Shown piece by piece: positions 9,938-62,558 of a DNA stretch of 64,000 bases. The stretch's first letter is position 1. Every line of letters starts with the position of its first letter. The notes under the pieces are model-generated. The model did no database searches. It had not been told where the DNA came from and saw nothing but the letters and a program-made list of their open reading frames with translations. A program made the position numbers and the translations under genes. Source of the DNA: Escherichia phage EC148; sequence record NC_106721.1, one strand, 5' to 3'.

Positions 9938-9966
9938 TTGACATCCACCCTCGAATGAGTTATAAT
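9938..9966 (+). promoter_or_regulatory. consensus sigma70 promoter upstream of nrdD (TTGACA-17-TATAAT)
   Basis: Perfect -35 and -10 hexamers with a 17-nt spacer. Confidence 0.75.
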
Positions 9967-9995
9967 AGTAGTCTTAGTTAGAGAAGGAGAGTATA

Positions 9996-11870
9996 ATGAA
10001 TCGCAATGAAGAACTAAAGTATAAAGAAATGCAGGCGTTAATTAGAAACTGCAAAGAGATTATCGAAGGGTCAGCAGATGAAGAGCTGCTGTTTAATAAT
10101 GCCAATAAACCCTCAGAACGTTTCCCTACACAGAGGGATATGCTTGCAGGTGAATTGAGTAAGTATCTGATTCTAGAAGAAATGCCAATTCAGATTCGAA
10201 ATGCTCATATGATTGGGGATATTCATTTCCATGATGCTGATTATGCTGCATTAGGCATGACTAATTGTTGTCTGGTAGCTCTGGAAGATATGTTGAAGAA
10301 TGGTATGAAGGTTGGTAATGCTGAAATTAGCACTCCAAACTCTATCACTACTGCGGCAGCTATTACAGCTCAGATTATCACACAGGTTAGCTCCCATCAG
10401 TATGGTGGTACTTCCGTGGATCGCCTTGATGAAGTATTAGCTCCTTATGTTCGTAAATCCTATGACAAAAATCATGCGTTTGCAAAACGTTGGACTAAAG
10501 ATGAGGCCAAAGCATCAGTAATGGCTACGGAGATGACTGAAAAAGAAGTTTATGATGCCTGTCAGGGTCTAGAATATGAAATCAATACCATGTTCAACTC
10601 TAATGGTCAGAGTCCATTTATTACCTTTGGTTTTGGTCTAGGAACTTCTTGGGAAGCACGTCTAGTACAGAAAGCAATACTGAAAGTACGCATGGATGGC
10701 TTAGGTATCAATAAACGTACAGCTATCTTCCCGAAACTGGTATTTGTACTTCGTGATGGCGTTAACATGAAACCAGGAGATGTTAATTATGACATCAAGA
10801 AGTTAGCTATGAAATGTACTGCTGAACGTATGTATCCAGATTATATCAGCTATGATAAGGTTGTGGAAGTTACTGGTGACTATAAAGTTTCTATGGGCTG
10901 CCGTTCATTCCTAGCTGCTACAGAAGATGGTGAAACTGCCGGTCGTAATAACTTAGGTGTTGTTTCTGTAAACTTGCCTAGAATTGCTATCGAAGCTGAA
11001 GGAAATATTGATCTATTCTTTGATTTGCTTGAGCTACGTGTGGATACAGCATTAAAAGCGTTGGAGTGGAGAGTTGATCGCTTAAAATACATTCAAGCTA
11101 AAGCTGCACCCATCCTCTATATGTCAGGAGCCTTTGGACTGCGCTTGGAGCCTGATGAATACGTATTCGATCATTTCTATAACCGTGCTTCTGTATCTCT
11201 AGGATATATTGGTTGTCATGAAATGCTACAGTTCATGTTTGGCAAAGATGTAGACACAATGTCCGAGACCAGCATCAAGTTTGTTCAGCGTGTATTGCAG
11301 TACATGCGAGATAGAGTCGATCAGAAGAAGGAAGAAACTAAGTTAGGTTATAGCCTGTATGCTACACCGTCAGAGTCCCTGTGTGATAGGTTTTGCCGTT
11401 TAGATCGTGAATATTTCCCGGAGCATGAAGATATTCTGTCCAAAGGATACTACACTAACTCTCACCACCTTGATGTGGAACGTAAAGTTGCTCCCAATGT
11501 GAAATTTGATTATGAATCTAACTTTACTCCGATTGCTTCTGGTGGGTGTATTTCCTATGTAGAACTACCGGATATGAAACGATTCCCAGATGCACTAGAA
11601 TGGGTTATTAATTATGCTGCTAGTAAAGTTCATTACTTCGGTATTAATACTCCAGTGGATTCTTGTGGTAAATGTGGATTCTTAGGTGAAACAATAGCAT
11701 CCGAAGATGGATTTAAGTGCCCTATCTGTGGTAATCATGACCCCGAAACTCTTGAAGTAACTCGTCGAGTTTGTGGGTATCTTGGAAATCCAGGTGCTCG
11801 TCCATTTAACCCAGGCAAACAGCATGAGGTTATGGGCAGGGTGAAACATCAGGATATTCGAGCTAAGTAA
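9996..11870 (+). CDS. nrdD: anaerobic ribonucleoside-triphosphate reductase (class III)
   Basis: 624 aa; C-terminal glycyl-radical motif RVCGYLG and Zn ribbon CGKCGF...CPICG; consensus promoter and AAGGAG RBS upstream. Confidence 0.9.
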   Translation: MNRNEELKYKEMQALIRNCKEIIEGSADEELLFNNANKPSERFPTQRDMLAGELSKYLILEEMPIQIRNAHMIGDIHFHDADYAALGMTNCCLVALEDMLKNGMKVGNAEISTPNSITTAAAITAQIITQVSSHQYGGTSVDRLDEVLAPYVRKSYDKNHAFAKRWTKDEAKASVMATEMTEKEVYDACQGLEYEINTMFNSNGQSPFITFGFGLGTSWEARLVQKAILKVRMDGLGINKRTAIFPKLVFVLRDGVNMKPGDVNYDIKKLAMKCTAERMYPDYISYDKVVEVTGDYKVSMGCRSFLAATEDGETAGRNNLGVVSVNLPRIAIEAEGNIDLFFDLLELRVDTALKALEWRVDRLKYIQAKAAPILYMSGAFGLRLEPDEYVFDHFYNRASVSLGYIGCHEMLQFMFGKDVDTMSETSIKFVQRVLQYMRDRVDQKKEETKLGYSLYATPSESLCDRFCRLDREYFPEHEDILSKGYYTNSHHLDVERKVAPNVKFDYESNFTPIASGGCISYVELPDMKRFPDALEWVINYAASKVHYFGINTPVDSCGKCGFLGETIASEDGFKCPICGNHDPETLEVTRRVCGYLGNPGARPFNPGKQHEVMGRVKHQDIRAK

Positions 11871-11878
11871 GCTAATCA

Positions 11879-11910
11879 GCCGGGTTGCTAGTCGACCTGG
11901 CTTTTATTTT
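11879..11910 (+). terminator. intrinsic terminator after nrdD
   Basis: Stem GCCGGGU/ACCUGGC with 9-nt loop, then TTTTATTTT. Confidence 0.65.
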
Positions 11911-11912
11911 AT

Positions 11913-11941
11913 TTGCTTTCAGCCAAAAATTTATATATAAT
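11913..11941 (+). promoter_or_regulatory. T5-type early promoter (TTGCTT-17-TATAAT)
   Basis: Followed by AGATTTATAAATTTGAGAGGAG. Confidence 0.7.
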
Positions 11942-11969
11942 AGATTTATAAATTTGAGAGGAGAAAGAT

Positions 11970-12350: not shown

Positions 12351-12549
12351 GAATGTGAAACACCTTAAATATCGCTTAATTTACAACGGACGTATGGAAA
12401 CAGAAGATCTGGCCCAATTAGCTATTAACTCTAATGAGGTTACAGTGCGTGCACTGGCAATTGAAAAGTTGCGTGCCTCTTATGAAAATCGTGTTATGGA
12501 ACTAGAGGAGAAACTTTATGGCATTCTCGAAGCCGATACTACCAGATAA
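12343..12549 (+). CDS. hypothetical protein (68 aa)
   Basis: ATG at 12343 overlaps the upstream stop (TAATG); the ORF-track start at 12325 is less likely. Confidence 0.4.
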   Translation: MTKNVKHLKYRLIYNGRMETEDLAQLAINSNEVTVRALAIEKLRASYENRVMELEEKLYGILEADTTR

Positions 12550-14230: not shown

Positions 14231-14232
14231 AT

Positions 14233-14670: not shown

Positions 14671-15063
14671 ATGGAACAAGTATATTGGCGTCAGATTGAT
14701 CCTAGTTTGGTGAAACGTGCGGAGAAGCTGCTACAACGTTGGTTGGGGGTAAGACAAGCCTCCTTCACTTTTCCGGAGCAGCAAATAGATGATCCCTGTG
14801 TTGGTGTTTTCCTATCCGGCTACGCGGGGGAATGGGAGTTGGATTGGAATGAGTTGTCTGCTATGGGTTTAATTGTTGCCCTAAATTTCTCTTTGTTCCA
14901 CCCACGTGGTTTGGCCATATGTCGTGTGTCGGATGATGGTTGTTCGCCCCATCTTTTACAGGTGGAAGATGATATTTGGGAGTACACTCCAGATATTCTC
15001 AAAGAAGCTAAAGAACAATTAAACCGTGTTGGGATTTATGTTCCAGGCTTAAATGATGAATGA
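14671..15063 (+). CDS. hypothetical protein (130 aa), paralog of the previous gene
   Basis: Tandem duplicate of 14233..14661; AGGAGG RBS; followed by an intrinsic terminator. Confidence 0.55.
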   Translation: MEQVYWRQIDPSLVKRAEKLLQRWLGVRQASFTFPEQQIDDPCVGVFLSGYAGEWELDWNELSAMGLIVALNFSLFHPRGLAICRVSDDGCSPHLLQVEDDIWEYTPDILKEAKEQLNRVGIYVPGLNDE

Positions 15064-15086
15064 TTTTTATTAGCTGAACTCTGATT

Positions 15087-15112
15087 ACCGAGTCATTTTG
15101 GCTCGGTTTTAT
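15087..15112 (+). terminator. intrinsic terminator after the accessory cluster
   Basis: Stem ACCGAG/CTCGGT with 9-nt loop, then TTTTA. Confidence 0.55.
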
Positions 15113-15154
15113 CCGTACTCAAGACCAATGATAGCACCATCCGGAAAATTTTAC

Positions 15155-15183
15155 TTGCAGGATGCCCAAAATCTTGATATAAT
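15155..15183 (+). promoter_or_regulatory. T5-type early promoter (TTGCAG-17-TGaTATAAT) heading a ~500-nt untranslated region
   Basis: Extended -10 TG present; conserved ATTTATATTGAATTGAGAGAC downstream; no ORF for ~500 nt. Confidence 0.6.
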
Positions 15184-15682
15184 ATTTATATTGAATTGAG
15201 AGACATTAGTAAAAATTGATTTTGCTAATTTTTCTTGTTTACAATCCGCGATACGGAACAGTTAGGCTGCCCCATTAAGGGTTGTTTTAACTGTTACGTG
15301 TTAGTTTTTAAACAAATAGTTAATAGAATACTTAGCGATCTGCGTCCCATAGGAACCCTGGTAAGGCCTCGAAGCAACCTAGTATGAGGTGGTTGTGAAG
15401 TGAGATGGGAGGAGTGAAAAACTCCGAGACGTGATTCTGTAAGTTATATTGCATCTAGTATGAGCTAGTATATGAAGCATTAGGTGAGCAAATCTGGCTT
15501 AGCGGCCATCCTCAAGGATTTGTGCGATATAGCAAAGCAGCAGCGCAGCGTGAAAGTGGAAGTTGCCACCCCCCTTCAGTATTTGCGATTAATTTGTTGA
15601 GAAATTGACAGTAACAGTTGTTCTATTCTTTCTGAATAGTCCTAAAGAAAACTTATTTTATTTCCAACACAGGAGTATTGTT

Positions 15683-18472
15683 GTGTTCTCAATCCTACAA
15701 GGTCATGCAGGATTTCATCGCGATTTAGCCACAGGCAATTGGCGAGAAGTTAAAGCAGAAGACTATCTTTTTGCTAAAAGATTTTCCTCAAAGCATCCTG
15801 AAGGTAAACCAGCCTCAATGCCCTTCAAGTTTGATGTAATTGATGAAGTTGATCCTCAAACCCTAGTAGAAATGCTTCCTCTTATGAGACGTTTAACGTC
15901 TGACCCTCATATCGTTGCGGTACGAGGTCGATGTCTTGCACCTAAAAATAATGTGCGACGTAAGAAGGGCAACTTTAATGTATCTAATCCAAGTCATATA
16001 ATTGCAATGGACGTGGATGGTATTGTAGATACAGGTGGTTGTAACAAGTTTGATCTTGTTGGCATGGCTCGACATATTATTAGGATGTTAAATAGTATTA
16101 GTGAGGATATGTTTCCTCTTGATGCAGGGTTTATCGCTCATGCATCGTCTTCGGCTGGGCTAAAACCAGGTATCCGAATGCACTTAATACTAGAATCTAA
16201 TGTTAAAGTAACTCAGGGTCAAATCAAATTCTTATTTACATCTATCAATGAAAGTAGTAGACAAAAGTACGGCTTTGATATTGCCGACTTAGCTTATTAC
16301 TCTTCCGTACAGCTCCATTATTTTGCAGATCCGTTATTTACTGATGGTATAGTAGATCCGTTTAAGGCGGAGGGTGCTTCACGTCTGGTATTTGTTAAAG
16401 GTTCTAAAGTAAATTTACCAAATAATCTGGTTGACTATGAAACAACTAGAGGTGAGTTTAAGGAGGAGTTTTACTCTTTACTCGATCAAATTAAAGGTAA
16501 AAAAGCTGCCTCTGATAAAGTAGAGGAAACTATCAGCGAACTAGAAGAAGCTGAGGATGGGGTGTACTTGCGTATTATCCCCAAACTATACCATAGAGCA
16601 TTAGAGGATGGTGTTGATTTTGCATGGCTAGAAAAAGAAATCCGTCCAGCCTTATCAGAATATATCGCAACTAAAGATAACAGTCGTAATATTCAAGATT
16701 ATTTTAATAACGGTCGTAAGCAGGCTCTGAAAGCGTTTGTTAATAATTCTAAACGCGATATACCCGATATTTTAAAAGGTATTCCACTTAAAAAGCTAGA
16801 AACTAATTCTCTAGAAACTGATAATTTCTTGAAACTAAATACTGTGCCACCAGAAGGTTATATGACTTTTGTAAAAGCGAGTTTAGGCACAGGTAAAACC
16901 ACGGCGGTTGTGCGTTGGTTAGATTCAGGAGTTATTAAAGGTAATTTTTTAGCAATTACCAATACTAGAGCACTGGTATCTTCAAATGCTAAGAAATTTA
17001 GTGCAGGACAATACGATAAGTCTGTAGATATGCTTAATTTTAAGCGTGGTGCTATTGACCGTATGTCCACAACTATTCACTCTTTGCATAAGTTCAAGAG
17101 TTTTATTGGTCAAATTGATGCAATCTTTATCGATGAATGTGATGCAGTAATGAACGACCTATTATTCGCCCCGGTTGTTAAACAACGTCGTGAATGTATT
17201 CAGGTTCTTCGGGATATTCTTGCAACTGCAAAAATCATTATATTATCTGATGGGGATATTAGTGCAGAAACAATTGAAGCATATGGTTCTTTGATTGAGT
17301 TTGATAAACCGGTTGCATTTTATAATCATCACCGTAAAATGCTATCAAAAGCTCATGCTTATGAGTTCCCTGATGAATCCAGTATTTGGGTTGCACTTCA
17401 GACTTCTCTAGAGATGGGTGAGAAATCTATCCTAGTATCTGACTGTGGGCCAGATGAACTGAATGAGAAGGGCATGGCATTGCGTCGTAATACGGGTGCG
17501 TTAGTTAAGGAAATCCACTCAAACTCTACATCTGATGTGGATATTAGACGTATTCTGGATTATACAACTAATGAGCTAATTGACCAACAAATTGATTGCT
17601 TATTATGTAGTCCATCCGTAACGAGTGGAGTTGACTTCAACTATTTTGATAACGTATTTGTTATTACTAGAACTAGTAACCAGGCGCCAAACATGCGTTT
17701 CCAAGCAATCAGGCGCGACCGTGGTGCTCAGAATATTTATTATTTTATTGATAAATCTACGAGTGGATTCTCCGCAGGTTCTGAACAATATAACATTGAT
17801 GAAGGTTGGCTGGAATTAGCACAGCAATTATACGCACGTCGTAGGGAGCTGGAGTCTAGGAACTATACTAGTACTTTACGTTATTACTTGCTTGATCAGG
17901 GTGCAACTATTGATATTTTCAGTGAAAGCTGGGGAAATATCGAAGGTGCAGGAAAAGAGTACACGGAAGAGCGAATCAAAGCCATTTTGTATTCAACTCC
18001 TGATTATTGTGCTCCACGCCATGCAGATGCGTATGAAGCTAAACTACTTCTTGTTCGCTACTATCATCTTGAGTCTATCAAAGATGTAACAGTTGAGCAT
18101 GTTGAACAATATATCAAGGATAAACCGAATGATCGAGCGGCATTCTTCCATAAGATGCACGAGATGTTCTGGGAGGATATTAAGAAGTGTTCAAATGTCA
18201 CTATCAAACCATTCATAGAAGCTCTGAAAGGTAAGAAGAAAGATTTCTTCCTTAAAACAGGTCAAAGTGCTAACCCAAAATATGCCAGAATGTATCTTGG
18301 TATGATGGGTATTGGTAAGGATATGAACACGGAGAATATTGTAGACTGGTACAGAACTTATTGTAAAATCGAGTGTATGCCAATCCCATATAAGTTTATG
18401 ACTGATGAGGAAAAACATATGCATGATGAAGCAATGGCAGAGCTAGGTGCTAGAAATGACAGTGAAGAATAA
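15683..18472 (+). CDS. large replication-initiation NTPase (T5 D2-like, origin-binding-protein/helicase type)
   Basis: Walker A SLGTGKTT and Walker B IFIDECD. Start set at GTG 15683 (AGGAG RBS 7 nt upstream) rather than TTG 15605. D2 equivalence is from position and size only. Confidence 0.6.
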   Translation: MFSILQGHAGFHRDLATGNWREVKAEDYLFAKRFSSKHPEGKPASMPFKFDVIDEVDPQTLVEMLPLMRRLTSDPHIVAVRGRCLAPKNNVRRKKGNFNVSNPSHIIAMDVDGIVDTGGCNKFDLVGMARHIIRMLNSISEDMFPLDAGFIAHASSSAGLKPGIRMHLILESNVKVTQGQIKFLFTSINESSRQKYGFDIADLAYYSSVQLHYFADPLFTDGIVDPFKAEGASRLVFVKGSKVNLPNNLVDYETTRGEFKEEFYSLLDQIKGKKAASDKVEETISELEEAEDGVYLRIIPKLYHRALEDGVDFAWLEKEIRPALSEYIATKDNSRNIQDYFNNGRKQALKAFVNNSKRDIPDILKGIPLKKLETNSLETDNFLKLNTVPPEGYMTFVKASLGTGKTTAVVRWLDSGVIKGNFLAITNTRALVSSNAKKFSAGQYDKSVDMLNFKRGAIDRMSTTIHSLHKFKSFIGQIDAIFIDECDAVMNDLLFAPVVKQRRECIQVLRDILATAKIIILSDGDISAETIEAYGSLIEFDKPVAFYNHHRKMLSKAHAYEFPDESSIWVALQTSLEMGEKSILVSDCGPDELNEKGMALRRNTGALVKEIHSNSTSDVDIRRILDYTTNELIDQQIDCLLCSPSVTSGVDFNYFDNVFVITRTSNQAPNMRFQAIRRDRGAQNIYYFIDKSTSGFSAGSEQYNIDEGWLELAQQLYARRRELESRNYTSTLRYYLLDQGATIDIFSESWGNIEGAGKEYTEERIKAILYSTPDYCAPRHADAYEAKLLLVRYYHLESIKDVTVEHVEQYIKDKPNDRAAFFHKMHEMFWEDIKKCSNVTIKPFIEALKGKKKDFFLKTGQSANPKYARMYLGMMGIGKDMNTENIVDWYRTYCKIECMPIPYKFMTDEEKHMHDEAMAELGARNDSEE

Positions 18473-18689
18473 AAAATGGGAAACAAGGAAGTTCCCAGTA
18501 AAAGAACGTAAAGTTCCTGTTTACGACACTTCGGAAAAGCTATGTAGGGTGGTACCGCATAGATTAGCTGGCATCCCTAATATATCCGAATGGTTACTTA
18601 AACAACGGAAAACAAACGTGTCTCTTCGCATCGGCTTTGAGTTAGATAAAGTCTATGCTGAACTTGCTTCTTTGCTCAAGGAATCGTAA
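18447..18689 (+). CDS. hypothetical protein (80 aa)
   Basis: ORF track; overlaps the 3' end of the D2-like gene; start uncertain (alternative ATG at 18456). Confidence 0.4.
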   Translation: MLEMTVKNKKWETRKFPVKERKVPVYDTSEKLCRVVPHRLAGIPNISEWLLKQRKTNVSLRIGFELDKVYAELASLLKES

Positions 18690-18697
18690 AAATTTAT

Positions 18698-18726
18698 TTG
18701 CATAGTGCAAAAAATTTCTGTATAAT
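18698..18726 (+). promoter_or_regulatory. PN25-like early promoter (TTGCAT-17-TATAAT)
   Basis: The -10 and following 26 nt (TATAATAGATTCATAAATTTGAGAGAGGAGTT) match phage T5 promoter N25 as I remember it. Confidence 0.8.
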
Positions 18727-18757
18727 AGATTCATAAATTTGAGAGAGGAGTTTAAAT

Positions 18758-19462
18758 ATGGCTGGTTCTCGTAGAAAGAAACATATCCATGAAATCCCGG
18801 ATGAAGTCTTTAAAAAGGTTATAGAGCATCTGGAGAACGGTGGTACCAAGAAAGCAGCATGTGAAATGCTCGGCGTATCATCCAATCCAACTATGGAAAG
18901 GATGATTGAAGAATGGCAAGACCGCCAGATTCAAGTGGCTGAAATGAAGAAAAAGAAACGTGGCACACTCATTGAAGGCATTGAGTTAGCTAACGTTATT
19001 GAACAGTATTTGTCTGGTGATTCTTTTGAAGAAATTGCCGATCGTAATTACCGCTCTGTAGCAATGGTTAAATCTGTTCTGGAACGATATGGTGCTCTGC
19101 TTCGTTTGAATGATATTGTAGATCCATTGAATCCTCCAATTATTCCTGATGATGCTGTAGCAGAAGAATTTGCAGTTGGTGAGCTTGTTTGGGTTCCTGG
19201 ATACCAGTGTATCGGTGAAATCAAAAAAGCAATGGATAACCCTGTTGGTTGTTACCGTGTATGGCTTCTATCAGAAGGCAAACAACAGAACGTTCATTAT
19301 ATGAATTACGAGCTGGCTTCTGTTAAACATCTGGAAAAGTTAGGGGTAGACGTAAAATCTCTAGGATATAAGTGGACTCGTGAAGAAATTATTACGTTGA
19401 TTAACGAAGCTGTTAAGGCTGCCCTGAAACTTGATAAAGAAAAAGGAAAACGCCGTGAGTAA
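18758..19462 (+). CDS. helix-turn-helix DNA-binding protein (234 aa)
   Basis: N-terminal HTH-like segment GGTKKAACEMLGVSSNPTMERMIEEW; driven by the PN25-like promoter. Confidence 0.6.
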   Translation: MAGSRRKKHIHEIPDEVFKKVIEHLENGGTKKAACEMLGVSSNPTMERMIEEWQDRQIQVAEMKKKKRGTLIEGIELANVIEQYLSGDSFEEIADRNYRSVAMVKSVLERYGALLRLNDIVDPLNPPIIPDDAVAEEFAVGELVWVPGYQCIGEIKKAMDNPVGCYRVWLLSEGKQQNVHYMNYELASVKHLEKLGVDVKSLGYKWTREEIITLINEAVKAALKLDKEKGKRRE

Positions 19463-19706
19463 GCTAACAGATTTGCTTAAAGATGGGGAAGTAAAAACTC
19501 TATATCGTAGAAGCTGGGATAATGACAATAATGGCTTAGTGTTACTAACTTTAGACGCTGACTCAGATGTAGTTACCCAACATACCTGGGTAGCTGGTAA
19601 TTATCCCTATAGTGAGGTTGTTACGTTAACAGTATGCGAAGCTATTGCTGACGATTGGGAGATTGCCAGCATTGATGATATGCTTGCTGTTGGCCTGGTG
19701 GAGTAA
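19455..19706 (+). CDS. hypothetical protein (about 83 aa)
   Basis: GTG at 19455 with AAGGAAA RBS; the ORF track begins at TTG 19431. Confidence 0.4.
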   Translation: MSKLTDLLKDGEVKTLYRRSWDNDNNGLVLLTLDADSDVVTQHTWVAGNYPYSEVVTLTVCEAIADDWEIASIDDMLAVGLVE

Positions 19707-19723
19707 CTACAGAAAAATTTCAG

Positions 19724-19752
19724 TTGCTTAATCCTATAATTCTTGATATAAT
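19724..19752 (+). promoter_or_regulatory. T5-type early promoter (TTGCTT-17-TATAAT, extended TG)
   Basis: Hexamers and spacing read directly. Confidence 0.65.
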
Positions 19753-19809
19753 ATTCTCATAGTTTGAAAGAACTATTCTGTTTAATTCTTAATTAAGGAA
19801 ATATAAAAT

Positions 19810-20220
19810 ATGACTACTCCAACTCAGTGGACTGATGAACTGTTCGAAAAAATGTCTTCCGAATACGTTGCTCGTATGGAGCAATTCCCAGAGGATGAAC
19901 GTCCGGGTGTTAGCATGGAAATTGTTAGCGAAATTGCTCAGGAAAATGGTGTAACTCCGAACGGTTTTCGTATGAAGTTGACCAAAGCAGGTGTATATAT
20001 CAAGAAAGCTGCTGGCTCTGCTTCTAAATCTAGTGCATCTACTGGAGAAAAAGCTTCTGGTGGTTCTCGCACTTCCAAAGCCCAAGCTCATGCCGATCTT
20101 CGTTCAGCATTCTCTGATGCTGGCCTAGCACCAGATTTTCTGGATGATGCAATTATCGACAAACTGACCGGTAAAGCGGCTGCTCATCTGGCAGAAGCAA
20201 TCCGAGCTATCACTAAGTAA
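19810..20220 (+). CDS. hypothetical protein (136 aa)
   Basis: ORF track; AAGGAAA RBS; T5-type promoter 19724-19752. Confidence 0.5.
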   Translation: MTTPTQWTDELFEKMSSEYVARMEQFPEDERPGVSMEIVSEIAQENGVTPNGFRMKLTKAGVYIKKAAGSASKSSASTGEKASGGSRTSKAQAHADLRSAFSDAGLAPDFLDDAIIDKLTGKAAAHLAEAIRAITK

Positions 20221-20256
20221 TTTTTAGATAAATCCACCAACAAAAGGAACACAGTT

Positions 20257-20553
20257 ATGACCAAAGCTGAAATTATCGCACAATGTGAAAAATTTGGTGA
20301 GTTTTATCTTCATTACGAGAAACTTCGTCAGAAAGGAACCACGTACCTTCAGGGTACGATGGAATTTGATCCAGCCCAAGATAAATATCTGGCTGAGCGT
20401 ATTAAACGTGAACGTATTCGTAAAGCGAAAGATGATGAGATCCTTGTCTTCTCTCGTACTAATGATAGCTTCCGTTTTATTCCTGTCGAGAAAGTCCGTC
20501 GTGTGACTAGCCTCCAATCAGAGTTAGATCGTGCTTCTCCAGTAGGCCGATAA
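20257..20553 (+). CDS. hypothetical protein (98 aa)
   Basis: ORF track; AAGGAA RBS; terminator downstream. Confidence 0.5.
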   Translation: MTKAEIIAQCEKFGEFYLHYEKLRQKGTTYLQGTMEFDPAQDKYLAERIKRERIRKAKDDEILVFSRTNDSFRFIPVEKVRRVTSLQSELDRASPVGR

Positions 20554-20563
20554 GAAACCAATT

Positions 20564-20587
20564 AGCCCCTATATGGGGCTTTTTGTG
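20564..20587 (+). terminator. intrinsic terminator
   Basis: AGCCCC-TATAT-GGGGCT followed by TTTTTGTG. Confidence 0.7.
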
Positions 20588-20603
20588 TATTTGGGATATG
20601 TAA

Positions 20604-20912
20604 ATGAGCGAACAGGTAAATCAAAACTATGAAGGACACGTTGATGACCAGTCCATCATACTTTGGGAGAAGGAGGGGGAACAAGTAAGATTAACAGTAT
20701 CTGAATTTCGTGGGAATCTATACATGGGTATTCGTTACTGGCTTCTTGATATTAATGATGAATGGTTTCCAACGAAATCTGGCTTCTCTTTTCCTTACAC
20801 CCTAGAAACAACATCACAGCTTTTCTATGCGTTTACACAGATTCTTAGCGAATCTGAGGTTTTACATGAAGTACAGAAACGAGCTGAAGAACTCAAAGCC
20901 AAGAATGCCTAG
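20604..20912 (+). CDS. hypothetical protein (102 aa)
   Basis: ORF track; terminator hairpin overlaps the stop codon. Confidence 0.5.
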   Translation: MSEQVNQNYEGHVDDQSIILWEKEGEQVRLTVSEFRGNLYMGIRYWLLDINDEWFPTKSGFSFPYTLETTSQLFYAFTQILSESEVLHEVQKRAEELKAKNA

Positions 20913-20929
20913 TTCTTGGCTTTTTCTTT
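20898..20929 (+). terminator. intrinsic terminator overlapping a stop codon
   Basis: GCCAAGAA-TGCCTAG-TTCTTGGC followed by TTTTTCTTT. Confidence 0.7.
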
Positions 20930-20939
20930 ATAAATGTAT

Positions 20940-20968
20940 TTGCTTTCAACTCAGTTTTGTTATATAAT
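20940..20968 (+). promoter_or_regulatory. T5-type early promoter (TTGCTT-17-TATAAT)
   Basis: Followed by ATTTATATAAATTAATGAGAGGG. Confidence 0.65.
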
Positions 20969-20998
20969 ATTTATATAAATTAATGAGAGGGTTGCAAA

Positions 20999-21271
20999 GT
21001 GAAAAAGATAAGTATAAGTACACTTAAACCTTTCCCGTACATCGGACAGCCTCTTATACTTATGTGGGAGGGGAAGATTAATGGAGAAAAGTATACTAAA
21101 ACTAGAAGTGGGTATAAGCTGATTTCACTTCATTACGAAAAAGAAGTATTAGTAGCTGAAATATACTCTCCGTTGTCAGATAGGCTAGTAAAAACTACAT
21201 ATTTGCATCTTTGCAAAAATTATACATGGCACGGATCCACTAGACAACCCACATACTATGAGGCAGAATAA
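20999..21271 (+). CDS. hypothetical protein (90 aa)
   Basis: GTG start; T5-type promoter 20940-20968. Confidence 0.45.
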   Translation: MKKISISTLKPFPYIGQPLILMWEGKINGEKYTKTRSGYKLISLHYEKEVLVAEIYSPLSDRLVKTTYLHLCKNYTWHGSTRQPTYYEAE

Positions 21272-22243
21272 ATGACCAATGTAAAAGACTTTATTAAACG
21301 TTGCCAAGAAGCATATTATCAAGGTATGTCTTTAATCTCTGATGAAGAGTATGATTGCCTGGTAAAACGCTTTCCGTTAGAAGAAGAGATCGGACCTAAG
21401 GGCGATATTCCACATCTGTATCGTATGTATTCTTTACAGAAAGTTTATTATAATCGTGGAGATAAACCTCCGTTTAACCCGTTAGGTCAAGTAGAAACTG
21501 ATAAGTTAGATGGTTGTGCAATTTCTCTGTTATATATTAATGGCGAATTTGTTCAAGCACTAACTCGTGGTAATGGTATTCTAGGGAATGATGTCACAAG
21601 CAACGTAAGATTGCTGAATATCCCTAAAAAGATTTCCCAAAAAGTACCTACTCAAATCACTGGTGAAGTTCTAATTACAAAAGAAGTAGAAAATAAACGT
21701 AACTTTGCCTCTGGTGCTATTAACCTCAAAGATAGTGATGATTTTGTACAACGTATCGGAGAAGGTGGTTTAATCTTCGTTGCATATGGTATCCAGTGTT
21801 CTGCTGAATCTGTAGGTATTACAGAAGCATATTTAAAAGATATGCTTTGGCTGGAGAATGAGAACTTCTTAACAGTTGTTAATGTGCGTTCCTTCTTTAA
21901 ATGGATTCCGACGGATGGTAAAGTTGTTCGTATTAATGACAACAACAAATTCTTCCGTGAAGGCTGGACTAATAAATTCCCTCGTGGAGCATTCGCTATT
22001 AAAGAGGATGAAGAAGGCGAGGTTACAACTCTTACTAAAGTTGAATGGCAGGTAGGGGCTTCTGGTAAAGTAACTCCAGTTGGTTATTTCGAACCGGTAA
22101 TTATTGATGATGCTACAATTGTTAAAGCGACTCTTAATAACGTTGATTATATTAACTCTCTTGATCTAGAGATCGGTTGCCAGATTCGAGTGATTCGTGC
22201 TGGTGGTGTAATCCCGTGCATAGTAGAGCGAGTATACGAGTAA
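21272..22243 (+). CDS. NAD+-dependent DNA ligase, N-terminal subunit (adenylation and OB domains)
   Basis: 323 aa; KxDG adenylation motif KLDGCA; ends before the Zn-finger region. Confidence 0.8.
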   Translation: MTNVKDFIKRCQEAYYQGMSLISDEEYDCLVKRFPLEEEIGPKGDIPHLYRMYSLQKVYYNRGDKPPFNPLGQVETDKLDGCAISLLYINGEFVQALTRGNGILGNDVTSNVRLLNIPKKISQKVPTQITGEVLITKEVENKRNFASGAINLKDSDDFVQRIGEGGLIFVAYGIQCSAESVGITEAYLKDMLWLENENFLTVVNVRSFFKWIPTDGKVVRINDNNKFFREGWTNKFPRGAFAIKEDEEGEVTTLTKVEWQVGASGKVTPVGYFEPVIIDDATIVKATLNNVDYINSLDLEIGCQIRVIRAGGVIPCIVERVYE

Positions 22244-22293: not shown

Positions 22294-22322
22294 TTGACAT
22301 TTTCGCCGCTTAGGTATATACT
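22294..22322 (+). promoter_or_regulatory. sigma70 promoter in the ligase spacer (TTGACA-17-TATACT)
   Basis: Consensus -35, 17-nt spacer, near-consensus -10. Confidence 0.6.
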
Positions 22323-22386
22323 AGTATCATTCAGTTGAGGGATAGAAAGTTATGGCGAGGGTAAGCAAAGTTAGTTAAAATTGTAG

Positions 22387-22415
22387 TTGCTAAATGCTTA
22401 AATACTTGCTATAAT
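22387..22415 (+). promoter_or_regulatory. T5-type early promoter in the ligase spacer (TTGCTA-17-TATAAT)
   Basis: Followed by ATTTATATAAATTGATAAGGAAG and the ligase C-subunit start. Confidence 0.7.
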
Positions 22416-22445
22416 ATTTATATAAATTGATAAGGAAGAAATTTG

Positions 22446-25531: not shown

Positions 25532-26418
25532 GTAGAATAACAGAACTACTTGATCTGAAAGGCATTGAATATAAAGACACAGGTGGGGACATCCTCATCT
25601 GTTGTCTCAATCCAGATCATGACGATAAACACCCAAGTTTGCGTATTGATCCTGAAACAGGTATTATGCACTGCTTGAGTTGTGGCTTCGGTAAAGGTAT
25701 ACCGAGCATTTACCATTATTTTAATGAGACTCAGTACCGACAGTCTCCAAGACTATCGCAGGTACGTAAAAAGATTTCAGAGATTAGGAATGGATCTACA
25801 AATCTTGCAATTCCTGAATCTGCTTACCTTTTCGAAGGTGATTTCCGAGGTATAAGTTCTAAGACCTTGAAGAAATACTTTGCTTTCCAACACCAAGCAG
25901 ACTGGGAAGGCAGAATTGTATTCCCAATCACAGATGCTGTTGGACGCAATATCCTATTTTTGGGTCGTTCTATAAACAGTTCTGCCCCTCCTAAATACTT
26001 AGTAAAACCAAAACAAGTTTCACCACCGATTTTCCCTGTACGATATAATACTCCAGTTCTTATTCTAGTTGAAGGTATCTTTGATATGCTGAACCTAGAG
26101 GATAATGGTATAGACTATGCTTCTTGCTGCTTTGGTACACATCAGTTTACTTCAGATAACATTGCAGATAAGTTTAGCCCTTATATTATTGCTGGTGTAA
26201 AAGTTGTTGTTATCTTACTAGATAATGATGCTTCTGGTAATAAAGCTGCACAAGCGTTGGCCAAGCTAATTCGTACAAAAACGCGTTTAACACCTGTAGT
26301 GGCTAACTTTCTTCTACCCGAAGGTAAAGACCCTGGTGACTTAAATAAAGAAGAAATTGATATGTTAGCAAAACGTATTGAAATTTTAGTTGCTGAATCG
26401 CTTAAAGATTTGGTATAA
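25528..26418 (+). CDS. DNA primase (DnaG-like, Zn-binding plus TOPRIM)
   Basis: 296 aa; N-terminal CHC2-type Zn motif (CCLNPDHDDKH...HCLSCG); ATGA overlap with the helicase. Confidence 0.75.
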   Translation: MSRITELLDLKGIEYKDTGGDILICCLNPDHDDKHPSLRIDPETGIMHCLSCGFGKGIPSIYHYFNETQYRQSPRLSQVRKKISEIRNGSTNLAIPESAYLFEGDFRGISSKTLKKYFAFQHQADWEGRIVFPITDAVGRNILFLGRSINSSAPPKYLVKPKQVSPPIFPVRYNTPVLILVEGIFDMLNLEDNGIDYASCCFGTHQFTSDNIADKFSPYIIAGVKVVVILLDNDASGNKAAQALAKLIRTKTRLTPVVANFLLPEGKDPGDLNKEEIDMLAKRIEILVAESLKDLV

Positions 26419-26419
26419 T
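26390..26419 (+). promoter_or_regulatory. sigma70-like promoter inside the primase 3' end, reading into the DNA polymerase gene
   Basis: TTGCTG, 18-nt spacer, TGgTATAAT with extended TG. Confidence 0.5.
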
Positions 26420-26480
26420 ATATTGGTAAGTTAGAGAAGAAACACTGAAGTTATACTTACTTACCAAGAGGAGATTAAAT

Positions 26481-29538: not shown

Positions 29539-30887
29539 AGGTTGTTATATCTAATAAAGCCTATTTCAAGCCCGATGATGAACTTTGGGATTATTGTAGT
29601 AAGCAAACCACTTATCACATAGAGACAATGACTAGTAAATACCCTATTATGTATAAGAATAGTGGTGTTGTTGCTAAAGAGATTAAGTGGATTCCTATCA
29701 CGCGTCTGGATTTATTAGATGCTAAAGGAGTAAAATACGAATTAGTAGATAAACGTACATTAGCTCCGGTAGATATACCAAAACCTAAGTTCAAGCTGCG
29801 TGAAGAAGACCAGCTCCCAATATATGAAGAGTGCGATGATACCTGTATTATTAATGGTAAGCCTGGGTTTGGTAAAACTATCCTAGCCCTTGCACTTGCG
29901 TATAAATTTGGCCAGAAAACTTTGGTAATCTGTACGAATACATCCATTCGTGAAATGTGGGCAGCAGAAGTTCGTAAATGGTTTGGGTTTGAACCGGGCA
30001 TTATAGGTTCTGGGAAATACAATATTGATCCACCAATTGTAGTCAGTAATATTCAAACAGTGAATAAACATGCGAATAATCTTTCTAAAGTATTCGGTAC
30101 TGTTATAGTTGATGAAGTTCACCATTGTGTGGCTACAACTTTCACCAACTTCCTAGAAATATCATGTGCTCGCTATAAGATTGGACTATCTGGAACATTA
30201 AAACGGAAAGATGGTCTACAAGTTATGTTCAAAGATTTCTTTGGATATAAGATCTTTAGCCCACCGGTTAATAATACTGTTGCACCTACAATCCATAGGT
30301 ACTCCGTGCCTGTTGAGTTATCAGGAAACCAAAACGTACCATGGGCATTACGTGCTAATGATGTGTATAACCATCCTGAATATCGAGAGACTATTATAAA
30401 CTTAGCACACTTATACGTGAATATGGGGCATAAAGTACTCATTGTAAGTGACAGAACAGAGTTAATCCAAACAGTACTAGAAGCTCTCGCACAGCGTGGT
30501 GTTACAACATATGAAATTATAGGGGCAACCCACTTGGATGACCGATTAAAAATTCAGGAAAATATAGCAAAAGGTGGGCCTTGTGTACTTGCAGCAGCTC
30601 AAAGTATCTTCTCTGAAGGTATTTCCCTTAATGAGCTATCTTGTTTAATAATGGGGAGTCTCATTAATAATGAATCTCTCATTGAACAGCTTGCAGGACG
30701 TGTTCAACGTATTGTCGATGGTAAACTCGACCCTATTGTTGTAGATCTAATTATGAAAGGTGGCACTGGACTAAGACAGGCTTCTGGACGTATGGCAGTA
30801 TATCGTAACAACGGGTGGAAAACTATTACCATGACTCCTGAGAAAGCAGTTCAATTAGCTAAAATTGCATTTGGCAACAGCTCATAA
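29535..30887 (+). CDS. SF2 helicase (T5 D10-like)
   Basis: 450 aa; Walker A GKPGFGKT, Walker B VDEVHH. Confidence 0.75.
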   Translation: MKVVISNKAYFKPDDELWDYCSKQTTYHIETMTSKYPIMYKNSGVVAKEIKWIPITRLDLLDAKGVKYELVDKRTLAPVDIPKPKFKLREEDQLPIYEECDDTCIINGKPGFGKTILALALAYKFGQKTLVICTNTSIREMWAAEVRKWFGFEPGIIGSGKYNIDPPIVVSNIQTVNKHANNLSKVFGTVIVDEVHHCVATTFTNFLEISCARYKIGLSGTLKRKDGLQVMFKDFFGYKIFSPPVNNTVAPTIHRYSVPVELSGNQNVPWALRANDVYNHPEYRETIINLAHLYVNMGHKVLIVSDRTELIQTVLEALAQRGVTTYEIIGATHLDDRLKIQENIAKGGPCVLAAAQSIFSEGISLNELSCLIMGSLINNESLIEQLAGRVQRIVDGKLDPIVVDLIMKGGTGLRQASGRMAVYRNNGWKTITMTPEKAVQLAKIAFGNSS

Positions 30888-30899
30888 ATGATGTATAAT
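30871..30899 (+). promoter_or_regulatory. sigma70-like promoter (TTGGCA-17-TGTATAAT)
   Basis: Overlaps the D10-like stop; followed by ATATACATAAATTTGAGAGAG. Confidence 0.55.
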
Positions 30900-30970
30900 A
30901 TATACATAAATTTGAGAGAGAAAGTTTCGGATTGATAAGAAAGTCCGAAGCAGAAAAATAAAAATTTTAG

Positions 30971-31000
30971 TTGCTAAATTCTCTCGAAATCTAGTATAAT
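30971..31000 (+). promoter_or_regulatory. T5-type early promoter (TTGCTA-18-TATAAT)
   Basis: Second tandem promoter; followed by ATATACATAAATTCGAGGAG with no start codon nearby. Confidence 0.55.
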
Positions 31001-31107
31001 ATATACATAAATTCGAGGAGAAAACAAAAATTAAATTCTTCGATTATGAAAAGCTATACTTACTAGCTAGAGGAAATTCCGACCTAATTATCAAGCTATT
31101 CAAAAGA

Positions 31108-45816: not shown

Positions 45817-45845
45817 ATTATAATAGTATTAGAAAATTTTATCAA
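45817..45845 (-). promoter_or_regulatory. sigma70-like promoter upstream of the Dit-like gene (TTGATA-17-TATAAT)
   Basis: Minus strand; located just after the tape-measure terminator. Confidence 0.55.
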
Positions 45846-58823: not shown

Positions 58824-58937
58824 AGTGTTCTCCTCAACTGTATGAATATAGTATACATAATCGTATCGAATTTGTAAAGGGGATTTTAAAATGCAGGAAT
58901 GGGATACCAACTGAGTAGTATCCCTTCCTATACTTAT

Positions 58938-60254
58938 TTATTTACCACGGGAAATAGAGTAAATTCCATAGCGCAGAGCATCACAGAGGTGAGAGTTAGC
59001 ATCATGACGTGGTTTTTCACGTGATAATTTTTCTTCACCTTCTTGGAAATCCCACTTGTAATTCTGCAATGCGTGAATTAATGAGGAACATGAAGCATCC
59101 ACAATAATCTTGCCTTGTTGGAATAGTGCTTGTAAACATGCTAATCCATCTAGGACAGATTTTTTAGCTGGAGCCGATGCAATTTCATGTTCATAAGCTA
59201 AGTCCTGACGGAACTGAGCTGCGGCAGAGTCAACAAAAACACGATCAACTTTATAACGATCTATACAGTGCTGAATGTAAGCCGCATGCTGAGCTGTGGT
59301 TTTCTCCGCCTGCTGGTACTCTTCTAATACATAGTAGGTATCTGTATCATAGTGGTACTTAATAGTAAGAACTGCTGTAGGATCACGATAACCAACGTCA
59401 ATACCAAGCAACGTTTCGAATGCTTCATCATCTTTAAAGAAGTGACGCATACCTTTAAGGTCTTTAACATGGTCTATAGCATTAAAGGTATCAAAGATCT
59501 GACCTTCGAATACAGAGAAGTCAGCCTCATATTCCTGACGAAAGTAGTTTTTACTAACTGTACGACGTGCTTCTTCGATATCATTCAGATCAGCACGTGG
59601 GTTATCACGATACGTACCATGAATAGATACCCAGTTAGGTAATGTATCATCAAATCCATAGGCATAAAACTCTTTAAACCAGTTACCACCACGAGGAGTA
59701 GAGATAAATAGAGCCTTAGAGTTTGGTTTATCTAGGGTAGGACGCAACTGAACTCTAAAGGCATCACCACCCACATCGGAAATTGCCGCCTCATCAAAGA
59801 TGATAAAGTCATATGAACGCCCAACTGCGGAGTCAGCCTGCGCCGCAGAAGCTAGTTTAAACAGAGAACCATTAGCTAACTCAATCTCTTTATCTTTAGC
59901 ATTCTCACGTTCGGTTTGTAGGCCATATTTTTTAATAAGACCACGAATCTGAGACCATCCGATGTTGGCCAGTGAGTAGTTAGGAGCAACTACTAGCACC
60001 TTTACGTTAGGCTCCAGCAACTTTAGAAACCCAAGTGTGTATGCGATGAAGGATTTACCTACACGGCGTGATACACACGCCGTTACAAAACGATGTCTAG
60101 GGTCTTCTAGCGCATTGATAATCGCTATTTGAGGACCATTAGGTGTAATACCCTCTTGAGCTAGTATTCCTGAAACAGGTAGACGAAAGAAACGTTTGTC
60201 TATTCCGAAATCAATAACATCAACTGTGTTAACGTAGGGTCTTGATACTTCCAT
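58938..60254 (-). CDS. terminase large subunit
   Basis: 438 aa; P-loop VSRRVGKSF; C-terminal nuclease-like half. Confidence 0.85.
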   Translation of the reverse strand: MEVSRPYVNTVDVIDFGIDKRFFRLPVSGILAQEGITPNGPQIAIINALEDPRHRFVTACVSRRVGKSFIAYTLGFLKLLEPNVKVLVVAPNYSLANIGWSQIRGLIKKYGLQTERENAKDKEIELANGSLFKLASAAQADSAVGRSYDFIIFDEAAISDVGGDAFRVQLRPTLDKPNSKALFISTPRGGNWFKEFYAYGFDDTLPNWVSIHGTYRDNPRADLNDIEEARRTVSKNYFRQEYEADFSVFEGQIFDTFNAIDHVKDLKGMRHFFKDDEAFETLLGIDVGYRDPTAVLTIKYHYDTDTYYVLEEYQQAEKTTAQHAAYIQHCIDRYKVDRVFVDSAAAQFRQDLAYEHEIASAPAKKSVLDGLACLQALFQQGKIIVDASCSSLIHALQNYKWDFQEGEEKLSREKPRHDANSHLCDALRYGIYSISRGK

Positions 60255-60736
60255 TACTTCTTACCTCCAGTAGCTAGGGAAGTAATTAAGTCCATGTAGT
60301 TTTGATCCCCAGCTCCAGCAATAATATTATTCTGGATATTGGTCTGATTAGCAGGAGCACGGACGGCAGCTTTAGCTTTTTCTAGCTCCACCATCATTTT
60401 CATCTCTTCCATCTTCATTTTATGTGCCTTCCAGAGAATATCCATAATATCCTGGTCAGAACCCATGCCAGTTTCTTCCAGTTCCTCCAGCTTACGTTTA
60501 ATAACTTCATCTAGAACACCGAACAAACGATCTCTGTTACGGAATCCACTCTCCATAAAAATATCGTTCAAGTAATTCTTAACTTCACTACGATTCATAA
60601 TATCTCGGAAAGCAATTTCAGACATTCCAAGACTACGTGCGGCAGAAGGCACATCGCTACCGCACTGTAAATAAGCTTCAATCACATCCATCCCTTCAGG
60701 GGACATAAGATCTGGTACTAATACATCATTTGCCAT
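60254..60736 (-). CDS. terminase small subunit (putative)
   Basis: 160 aa; N-terminal HTH-like segment; immediately upstream of the large subunit with ATGA overlap. Confidence 0.55.
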
Positions 60737-60746
60737 ATTTCCTCCT

Positions 60747-62504
60747 TTAGGTAAGGCGTTGAACTGTTACTCTTAATCTAGGTAGAAAAACTGCACTACC
60801 TAAACTTACGTGCATAACTACCCCTAACTCTACATTTCCATTCCCCAGATTTTTAGCAGTATATATAAAACTATTTCTACTTAGGGCATTGTTAGGTGTG
60901 TATCTAAAAGCAGATGTAGTATGAAAAGGTACTAAATACCCTACTGGTAATGTTAAAATCTGGTGGAATATCGCGTCACCATTACTATAACTATATGCTC
61001 TTCTTCCTTGCACCTGAAACACACCGTTATTCCATGTATTAGCAGGGACACCTGCACAGTTAAGATTACCTGATATAACTTCAGTGGTAAGAATTACTGT
61101 AGCATTGCCACCCGGTATACCTAGCCCAATAGTTGATAAACCAACGTATCTATCTCCTGTTCCTGGGTAGCTGGGGGTAATATCATCTCCCATATAAGAA
61201 CTACCTACATTTCCACCAAAAAGTCGTAATGGAACTGCTGATGGTCCCCAAACAACCCCGTGTTCATTACCGATAGTATTATCATTAGAGTTTACGTACC
61301 ATTGCTTACCAGCTCCGAATTTGTAAATACTAATTTGAGACTTAGCCCCTCCATAGTCCACAGGAGACCATAAACTCCCGTTACTAGAACCTACAAGTTC
61401 ACACCTTGCGGTGGTATCCCCAAAGGCCCCAGTATATGCTGCATTATTTCCAATATATTCCATATCTGGTCTATAACCTAAGTTACCGAAAGCGTTCTGG
61501 TTAATAAACTTGTATCCAGTATTGGGAAGACTAACCCCTTTAATTATGAAATTAGAAGGAGATATAAGAATATCTGAACCAGTAAAAGGATTACCAGAGA
61601 TACTCATACCACCATTTGAGTATCTTAAATTCAAAACGTACCAAATAACTTTAGTAGGAGTTATGTTATACCAATCTTGTAGTATTGTAGAATCACCAGA
61701 TTGATTAGCTAAATTAGTTGTAGAACCCCTACAAACAAACCTATTACCCCCATCATGATACATAGTATTTACATTACCAGGAAGACCTTGTCTTACCCCA
61801 CCATACCCACGTATGTTAGAGTTACAAACATAGAACCAATCGTGCCCTCTGTGTGCTGATCCTAAAGGAGACATCCATCCTGGGTCCCAGTAATTTTGGT
61901 TATTCCCATCTATAGGTACTGTACTACTATTAGTAGGGAATCCTAACTGTGCAAAAGCTTCTGCAACAGTAACCCCTACTGGAGCTCCTGCACCTGGCCT
62001 AACTATACCATGATACGTACTATGTAGGGTAGTTCCACCAGTACCATTCCTAGAAATAGATTCTTCATGCCCTATAGATGGATTATAGTTATATGTACCA
62101 GATGCCAGGCTATTACCAAATGCAAATCCACTAGTCTGGGAAACACTAGCAAAAGATCTAAAAGGATCTGCTTGAGTGGCAACTATAGTTTGACCCACCT
62201 TACTCTGAGTACCATTAAGAAAAGCTCTGTGAGTACCATTAATCTCAATAGCAGTTAATATAACTCTACCAGGATCGTTAGATTTAATATTTATTATGTC
62301 AGAGGGCATCTGACATACAAAAAACCCATTTCCGGCATTTCCTAACCCAGCCTCATAAGTACCATCAACTAGGACAAATGGCATATCACTATGAAAAATA
62401 CTATTGGCATTTGGACTATAGTGACGATTAATGTCACCACCAGATTCAGTATTTAAAGATAGTACGGTCTTACCATCGCTATATTTTCCAGCGAAAAAAC
62501 CCAT
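60747..62504 (-). CDS. receptor-binding tail protein (pb5/Oad functional analog)
   Basis: 585 aa; Gly/Asn/Ser/Tyr-rich; divergent from an llp-like lipoprotein gene as in the T5 oad-llp arrangement. Confidence 0.6.
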
Positions 62505-62529
62505 ATAATCTCCTATTATAAAAATGTAT

Positions 62530-62558
62530 TTGCTTTCATCCCTCTATTTTGCTATAAT
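62530..62558 (+). promoter_or_regulatory. T5-type early promoter driving llp (TTGCTT-17-TATAAT)
   Basis: Followed by AGATTCATAAATTAGAAATGGAGAG and the llp ATG. Confidence 0.7.

Follow-up and report, generated by a model that had tools for sequence, protein, structure and literature searches.

The window analysed here, a stretch of 64,000 nucleotides (nt) from Escherichia phage EC148 (NC_106721.1), contains a family of early promoters of the type known from phage T5, with a conserved initially transcribed region. In the annotation of the related record LR597659, early genes occupy the minus strand up to ~9640 and the plus strand from 9996 to 36795 (nrdD, helicase, D2, D3, ligase, D5, DnaB, primase, polymerase, D10-D15 and dUTPase), the late structural genes lie on the minus strand from 37078, and position 62590 on the plus strand is the start of an llp-like lipoprotein gene. 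Searching for a TTG-type -35 element placed 16-18 nt from a TATAAT-like hexamer, we found 12 clear plus-strand sites in 9938-62578, with -10 hexamers starting at 9961, 11936, 15178, 18721, 19747, 20963, 22317, 22410, 26414, 30894, 30995 and 62553. Five further members lie on the minus strand (1657-9886), outside the range covered by an initial annotation made from the letters of the sequence, with -10 hexamers at 9863, 9722, 6125, 2477 and 1682. Sites are named below by these -10 positions; they are located in intergenic gaps or at gene 3' ends and are co-directional with the early genes. The initial annotation had counted at least 14 promoters, and although the family it described is real, only the 12 plus-strand sites fall within its range, so that 14 is reached only by adding the weak minus-strand sites of the late region at 45822 and 58855. 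The coordinates that it gave all proved correct and mark -35 hexamers (TTGACA at 9938, TTGCAG at 15155, TTGCAT at 18698 and TTGCTA at 30971); within its site at 18698-18726 the TATAAT is confirmed at 18721-18726, and its end point, 62558, is the last base of a TATAAT. The sites are listed here with the -35 hexamer, spacer length, -10 hexamer (with any preceding TGn), discriminator (lower case), start region, and the position of the following start codon relative to +1.

9938-9986, plus strand: nrdD promoter; TTGACA, 17-nt spacer, TATAAT, then CTTAGTTAGAGAAG; ATG at +24; putative promoter in T5 st0
11913-11961, plus strand: promoter; TTGCTT, 17 nt, TATAAT, agattt, ATAAATTTGAGAGG; ATG at +23; directly behind the terminator hairpin 11878-11902; putative promoter in T5 st0
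15155-15203, plus strand: orphan promoter; TTGCAG, 17 nt, TATAAT, atttat, ATTGAATTGAGAGA; putative promoter in T5 st0
18698-18746, plus strand: P-N25 ortholog; TTGCAT, 17 nt, TATAAT, agattc, ATAAATTTGAGAGA; ATG at +26; +1 assigned from Klimuk 2020
19724-19772, plus strand: P-N26 ortholog; TTGCTT, 17 nt, TGa TATAAT, attctc, ATAGTTTGAAAGAA; gene start at +52
20940-20988, plus strand: promoter; TTGCTT, 17 nt, TATAAT, atttat, ATAAATTAATGAGA; GTG at +25; behind the terminator 20895-20923; putative promoter in T5 st0
22294-22342, plus strand: P-K28b ortholog; TTGACA, 17 nt, TATACT, agtatc, ATTCAGTTGAGGGA
22387-22435, plus strand: P-K28a ortholog; TTGCTA, 17 nt, TGc TATAAT, atttat, ATAAATTGATAAGG; ligB ATG at +25
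26390-26439, plus strand: DNA polymerase promoter; TTGCTG, 18 nt, TGg TATAAT, atattg, GTAAGTTAGAGAAG; polymerase ATG at +56; overlaps the primase 3' end; putative promoter in T5 st0
30871-30919, plus strand: upstream member of a tandem pair; TTGGCA, 17 nt, TATAAT, atatac, ATAAATTTGAGAGA; no open reading frame (ORF) after it; identical, and unannotated, in T5 st0
30971-31020, plus strand: downstream member of the tandem pair; TTGCTA, 18 nt, TATAAT, atatac, ATAAATTCGAGGAG; next gene at 31108 (+102); putative promoter in T5 st0
62530-62578, plus strand: promoter of the llp-like receptor-blocking lipoprotein gene; TTGCTT, 17 nt, TGc TATAAT, agattc, ATAAATTAGAAATG; ATG at 62590 (+26); putative promoter in T5 st0
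9838-9886, minus strand: member with a GC-rich start; A-tract, TTGCCA, 17 nt, TATAAT, then the very different GC-rich, partly palindromic cacgcaCTCGTGCACGCGAT
9697-9745, minus strand: phoH-side promoter; TTGCTT, 17 nt, TGg TATAAT, atattt, GTAAGTTGATAAAC; putative promoter in T5 st0
6100-6148, minus strand: nrdB-side promoter; TTGCTA, 17 nt, TGc TATAAT, attcct, GAAATAGTGAGAAA; ATG at +26; putative promoter in T5 st0
2452-2500, minus strand: promoter; TTGCTT, 17 nt, TATAAT, attcgt, ATTGAAAGTGAGGA; ATG at +22; putative promoter in T5 st0
1657-1705, minus strand: P-H207 ortholog; TTGCTA, 17 nt, TATAAT, atactt, CATAAATTGATAAA
45797-45845, minus strand: late promoter, P-G25 ortholog; TTGATA, 17 nt, TATAAT, attgtt, ATTAAAGAGGAGAA; weak family match
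58830-58878, minus strand: promoter-like site of the late region; TTTACA, 17 nt, TATACT, atattc, ATACAGTTGAGGAG; weak core, family-like start region; putative promoter in T5 st0

Alignment to the T5 reference genome (T5 st0, AY692264) identified the orthologs of the named promoters P-N25 (18721), P-N26 (19747), P-K28b (22317), P-K28a (22410), P-H207 (1682, minus strand) and P-G25 (45822, minus strand), and 'putative promoter' features of AY692264 correspond to the sites at 9961, 11936, 15178, 20963, 26414, 30995 and 62553 and to the minus-strand sites at 9722, 6125, 2477 and 58855. The T5 early promoters (P-N25, P-N26, P-K28a/b and P-H207) share with the window family the -43 A-tract, TTGCTw, a spacer of 17-18 nt, TATAAT, an A/T-rich discriminator and ATAAATT at +1, whereas the putative promoter upstream of the Sir2-like gene of T5 st0 has no counterpart in the window. 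In the T5-like phage AKFV33, 32 promoters have been described with a consensus of TTGCTw, TATAATA, a 17-18 bp spacer, AAAAATT at -43 and TAAATT at +1 (Niu 2012, PMC3326045), which is the pattern described in the initial annotation; the AKFV33 paper is silent on the GAGAG tract, the overlap with a Shine-Dalgarno sequence and a spacer C at -25. The T5 reference annotation and the published consensus thus agree that these are T5-type early promoters whose initially transcribed region is conserved, and the family is real, correctly located and correctly named. Since orthologous sites are annotated in T5 and a consensus has been published, the pattern had already been described: the promoter family, its consensus including TAAATT at +1, and the effect of the N25 start region on escape are already known. 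Promoter activity, the position of +1 and the N25 escape effect are taken from the T5 literature (PMC7472727, PMC12464699). In particular, T5 early and late promoters have been aligned and confirmed by primer extension in infected cells, a promoter termed Ppol was mapped as early in vivo, and early promoters have a specific discriminator of the ATATT type, in which they mainly differ from late ones (Klimuk 2020, PMC7472727). The 26414 promoter is probably Ppol, an equivalence that is our own.

The P-N25 copy had been thought to match the T5 prototype almost exactly. It is identical to T5 st0 from about -18 to +32, but eight aligned columns differ upstream, comprising a change from TTGCTT to TTGCAT in the -35 element, five changes in the spacer and two in the -43 tract (including one single-base gap). 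Its region matches records MG065692.1 and MG065642.1 (Campylobacter phages C13 and A148) and some records named 'Listeria phage' at 93-98% identity; judging from their T5-like genome sizes, these phages are probably T5-like and carry misleading host names.

Aligned on the -10 element, the 17 sites give the consensus AAAATTtTA-t-TTGCta-(17)-TATAAT-ATatt-ATAAATT.GAgAa. All 17 have a TTG-type -35 hexamer, and exactly TTGCT(A/T) occurs in just nine; the -10 hexamer is TATAAT in 16 and TATACT in one, and is preceded by TGn in 7/17. Spacers measure 17 nt at 15 sites and 18 nt at two, and the A/T-rich character ascribed to them is marginal (0.66, compared with 0.61 for the genome). In the discriminator, A is found at -6 in 16/17 sites, while ATATT in the strict sense, read from the final AT of the -10 element, occurs in ~8/17 and the others have AGATT, ATATAC or AGTA. 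The N25 sequence from -12 to +2 is TATAATAGATTCAT (Klimuk 2020, PMC7472727); this places +1 at the A of ATAAATT, so that transcription starts at precisely the first base of the conserved block. ATAAATT stands at +1 in 7/12 plus-strand sites, with close variants in the remaining five; the minus-strand members match it weakly or with a 1-nt shift, and 9863 does not match at all. The block written as (C)ATAAATT(T)GAGAG is conserved far above controls, but the literal 13-mer ATAAATTTGAGAG is found only three times, so that the block is a degenerate consensus. We considered a preference for NAD-type capping (published consensus HRRASWW) and dropped it, T5 early promoters having Y at -1 and T at +2.

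The extended features, rather than the two hexamers, define the family, since a generic sigma-70 consensus scan of the window showed no enrichment (59 sites versus 58 expected). Compared with 5000 random sets of 17 drawn from 90 other TATAAT sites, the block at +1 to +14 contains 9.63 bits (controls 2.04 ± 0.44, maximum 3.8), the -43 tract in columns -45 to -37 contains 9.0 bits (1.4 ± 0.36), the spacer 8.6 bits (2.5) and the discriminator 3.6 bits (0.85 ± 0.28); the 14 nt upstream of the -35 element are 83% A+T. In leave-one-out scoring with +1 to +14 alone, 12/12 plus-strand sites ranked within the top 0.3% of window positions, while the minus-strand members were weaker or shifted by 1 nt and 9863 was without any match. 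The position-weight-matrix scan that had been suggested as a check was run with a matrix from other genera, built to avoid circularity from 39 promoters of the phages KPN4 (Klebsiella, Sugarlandvirus), RP7 (Proteus, Novosibvirus) and PSTCR5 (Providencia, Priunavirus) that were selected on core criteria alone. Its consensus, TTGCCA .. TATAAT ATtT.T ATAAAtTGAaGAGA with ATAAAtTGAaGAGA at +1, agrees with the window family, and with 40 shuffles as controls the matrix recovered 18 sites in the window that scored higher than the best shuffle. Simpler searches of the window were uninformative: TATAAT-N(0-3)-ATAAATTNGAGAG, exact or gapped, gave no matches because the true gap is 6 nt, and the 13-mer with at most two mismatches was not enriched (6 versus 4.4 expected in shuffles), so that a positional matrix was needed.

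Five Demerecviridae genera share the whole extended consensus, with its start region and a C at -25 in the spacer. This C, the fifth spacer base after the -35 element and 13 nt upstream of the -10 element (e.g., 18708), is present in 16/17 window promoters (binomial P ~6e-11) and is enriched elsewhere (T5 st0 10/12, EPS7 9/14, PSTCR5 11/16, KPN4 5/11, RP7 5/12); we met no mention of it in the T5 promoter literature cited here.

To what extent the downstream block belongs to the promoter or to the ribosome-binding site can be approached by comparing promoters with and without an adjacent gene. We collected 74 promoters from the window, EPS7, KPN4, RP7 and PSTCR5, selected on core criteria only, and considered ORFs of at least 35 codons. 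An ORF starts at +17 to +32 in 49 of the 74 (mode +26), and nine of the 17 window members have start codons at +22 to +27. Given this clustering of start codons near +26, GAGAG(G) occupies the place required of a Shine-Dalgarno sequence in about two-thirds of family members. At the 49 gene-adjacent promoters, positions +8 to +17 are ~90% purine and G alternates, reaching about 50% at +11, +13, +15 and +16. In the other 25, A at +4/+5 and T at +7 are retained, which is the ATAAATT register, in some cases displaced by 1 nt; positions +9 to +18 are 72-88% purine there, with G down to ~20% at +12 to +15. Across the window family the mean purine content of +1 to +20 is 0.71, compared with 0.53 for sense-strand 20-mers of the window. 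The initial annotation had taken the block for a promoter element and not a ribosome-binding site. This holds for ATAAATT and the purine tract, which are present at orphan promoters, but is too sweeping for GAGAG(G), which is in the Shine-Dalgarno position in about two-thirds of cases. In our reading the block combines two elements, with ATAAATT as the start region and GAGAG(G) as a purine-rich initial transcribed sequence that in most cases is also the Shine-Dalgarno sequence of a ~25-nt leader.

The two promoters described in the initial annotation as lacking a nearby start codon (15155 and 30971) do lack one, with no convincing ORF in 15063-15683 and the first gene after 30995 at 31108, about +102. 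The 15178 promoter heads an untranslated leader of ~490 nt (15190-15683) upstream of the gene for a helicase or origin-binding protein; a 20-codon ORF with a TTG start at 15216 is not conserved in KPN4. The same gap is headed by a family promoter in T5 st0, EPS7, KPN4 and RP7, and the leader contains islands conserved across genera, e.g., GCTTAGCGG. Its 5'-terminal hairpin pairs the start region, with compensatory changes in KPN4 and RP7, and its RNA fold has a z-score of -3.1; it has no match in Rfam. The region may function as a structured leader, as a non-coding RNA or as an origin primed by transcription. In PSTCR5, a tRNA-Tyr gene closely follows a family promoter with ATTGAATTGAGAGA.

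The initial transcribed sequence of N25 is also termed the downstream sequence region (reportedly in work by Kammerer et al. in 1986 and by the Hsu laboratory), and T5 promoters were reportedly selected in vitro by Gentz and Bujard in 1985. Judging from sequence, the sites described here are very probably classical strong sigma-70-dependent early promoters of Tequintavirus with an escape-favouring start block that doubles as a Shine-Dalgarno sequence. The host RNA polymerase holoenzyme would be bound very tightly through the A-rich, UP-like tract at -43, TTGCTw, the perfect TATAAT and the A/T-rich discriminator, and would begin transcription 7 nt past the -10 hexamer, at the A of ATAAATT. Since binding would be very tight, we propose that these promoters are limited at the step of escape. 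The A/T-rich, then purine-rich ATAAATT..GAGAG would favour productive escape over abortive cycling, and its purine tract would double as the Shine-Dalgarno sequence of the very short, ~25-nt leader of most members. Promoter, leader and ribosome-binding site would together form a compact cassette, in many cases located right behind a terminator. When +3 to +20 of N25 was replaced by the antiDSR sequence, full-length RNA fell to about one tenth and abortive products increased (PMC12464699). This replacement, which turns the purine-rich non-template strand pyrimidine-rich, biases the complex toward the pre-translocated state and backtracking (PMC12464699), and purine-rich initial sequences favour escape (PMC12464699; PMC5961368). 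The window copy of the N25 downstream sequence region is unchanged from about -18 to +32, which covers the +3 to +20 replaced in antiDSR. The 71% purine content over +1 to +20 would fit selection for efficient escape from tight-binding promoters.

Several observations weigh against this reading. The N25 escape experiments concern one promoter, whereas the conservation described here across the family and across genera is that of the sequence; escape function has been measured for N25 only, and we infer it for the family as a whole. GAGAG is confounded with a Shine-Dalgarno sequence in 49/74 promoters and is poorer in G at promoters without a following gene, so that part of the conservation reflects selection at the level of mRNA. 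In addition, the minus-strand site 9863 combines a perfect family core with a completely different, GC-rich start region, and the block is therefore not obligatory. Finally, the 15178 leader is near-invariant from +1 to +75 among close relatives (27 IMG/VR orthologs), and since it is conserved throughout, constraint on its start region is inseparable from constraint on the rest of the leader.

The strongest competitor of an escape-favouring start block, which we regard as possible but clearly the less probable explanation, is that the block acts at the level of mRNA, as an A/U-rich unstructured leader with a Shine-Dalgarno sequence for fast ribosome loading, and persists at orphan promoters as a relic. 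The clustering of start codons at +17 to +32 in 49/74 promoters (mode +26) and at +22 to +27 in 9/17 window members argues for it, as does the G-A-G-A-G periodicity at +11 to +17, which is strongest at the gene-adjacent promoters, with G at ~20% in +12 to +15 of the 25 that have no nearby start. However, ATAAATT and the purine tract are kept in untranslated sequence at 15178, 30894, 30995, 26414 and the tRNA-Tyr promoter of PSTCR5, and the antiDSR effect on N25 was seen in purified, ribosome-free in vitro transcription (PMC12464699). That the similarity goes back to one ancestral promoter cassette, mobile or duplicated and spread by recombination with no selection on the downstream block, seems unlikely to us. 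Discrete subtypes of discriminator and start (agattcATAAATT, atttatATAAATT, atatacATAAATT and atattgGTAAGTT) do recur at non-orthologous sites and in other genera, the tandem pair 30894/30995 shares -12 to +7, and the best N25-like match of KPN4 lies at a non-orthologous site, before a gene beside RNase H. Neutral copies would be expected to decay, however, while the consensus is kept in four further genera whose DNA, around the promoters sampled, resembles the window in the promoter alone, and T at +2 (45/49) is far more conserved than its neighbours. The PeSL (promoter-early stem-loop) cassettes of T4-like phages are reportedly (Arbiol et al. 2010) likewise short, repeated intergenic early-promoter modules, sometimes beside a hairpin or terminator, and possible recombination substrates; they differ from the present family in consensus and phage family, so that the likeness is one of analogy only.

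It appears more doubtful still that the discriminator and +1 to +7 serve temporal control, as the target of a phage-encoded protein that binds RNA polymerase, such as gpT5.026, or of an early shut-off factor, or as a sigma-70 proximal pause element (TAAATT at +2 to +7). Pause elements of the lambda PR' type carry a -10-like hexamer in which the equivalents of A(-11) and T(-7) are best conserved, with a pause near +16/+17. TAAATT fits TAnnnT, but the best-conserved position is T at +2 (45/49) and not the A(-11) and T(-7) equivalents (37/49 and 36/49), unlike a -10 element. In favour of such control, the late-region sites match the family less well. The main reported difference between early and late promoters also lies in the discriminator, and gpT5.026 lowers the affinity of RNA polymerase for the -5/+2 region of N25, although it was without strong effect in vitro (Klimuk 2020, PMC7472727). 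An even longer shot, suggested by the sequence patterns, is that the subtypes agattcATAAATT, atttatATAAATT/atttatATTGAAT, atatacATAAATT and atattgGTAAGTT, together with the spacer C at -25, might form a code for a polymerase modified by the phage (through gpT5.026 or the early shut-off factor) or a sigma-70 pause that would sort early promoters into kinetic subclasses.

Several individual sites have further features. On the plus strand, an intrinsic terminator abuts a family promoter at 11878-11961 and at 20895-20988, forming compact modules of terminator, promoter and ribosome-binding site, and the T-run of the 11878-11902 terminator doubles as the upstream A/T tract of the 11936 promoter. 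P-K28b is followed (region 22329-22380) by just an 8-codon mini-ORF, ATGGCGAGGGTAAGCAAAGTTAGTTAA, at +24 and then by the ligB promoter P-K28a. The tandem promoters 30894 and 30995 are 101 nt apart and identical from -12 to +7 (TATAATATATACATAAATT); 30894 transcribes a TTCGGA-N12-TCCGAA hairpin in a short spacer without an ORF. The discriminator and start of the minus-strand 9863 site, which lies 141 nt upstream of the 9722 promoter and is followed by no ORF, are GC-rich in T5 st0 and EPS7 as well, and the site may represent an operator or a family member under different regulation. In addition, the annotated 5' end of nrdA (which spans 6195-8630 in the related record) contains a family-like promoter at 8544-8592 on the minus strand, with TTGCCT, a 17-nt spacer and TAGAAT, followed by an ATG near +33; this is either a promoter internal to the gene or a sign that NrdA really starts ~33 codons downstream of its annotated start.

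The closest relatives of the window are T5-like phages. Megablast of 18000-22000 gave matches in 476 T5-like records, including T5_ev212 (LR597659.1, Tequintavirus) at 100% identity, and direct comparison of 17-50000 with T5_ev212 gave 99.8% identity, with ORF coordinates that agree with its annotation over ~10-50 kb and one 16-nt indel in the first ~10 kb. The right end (58824-63316, the region of terminase, receptor-binding protein and llp) is only ~95% identical to T5_ev212 and lacks ~720 nt of it, whereas it is 99.9% identical to vB_EcoS_MM-1. The indel and the diverged right end rule out that the window equals LR597659 position for position. Since its left part resembles T5_ev212 and its right end vB_EcoS_MM-1, sequence comparison indicates that the window is a mosaic T5-like tequintavirus genome, a relative of T5 st0 and not T5 st0 itself. 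Rfam and ARAGORN scans of the window gave no matches.

The family is textbook knowledge: widely used expression vectors carry P-N25 as their 'T5 promoter', and studies of abortive initiation and promoter escape use it as a standard model. The presence of T5 early promoters in a T5-like genome confirms the type of genome and offers little new biology. The small additions made here are a composite block, in which the start region is joined by a Shine-Dalgarno sequence at a fixed distance, with leaders of ~25 nt; an extended consensus with C at -25 that spans five genera; and the observation that a few members of the family drive long untranslated leaders and not genes.

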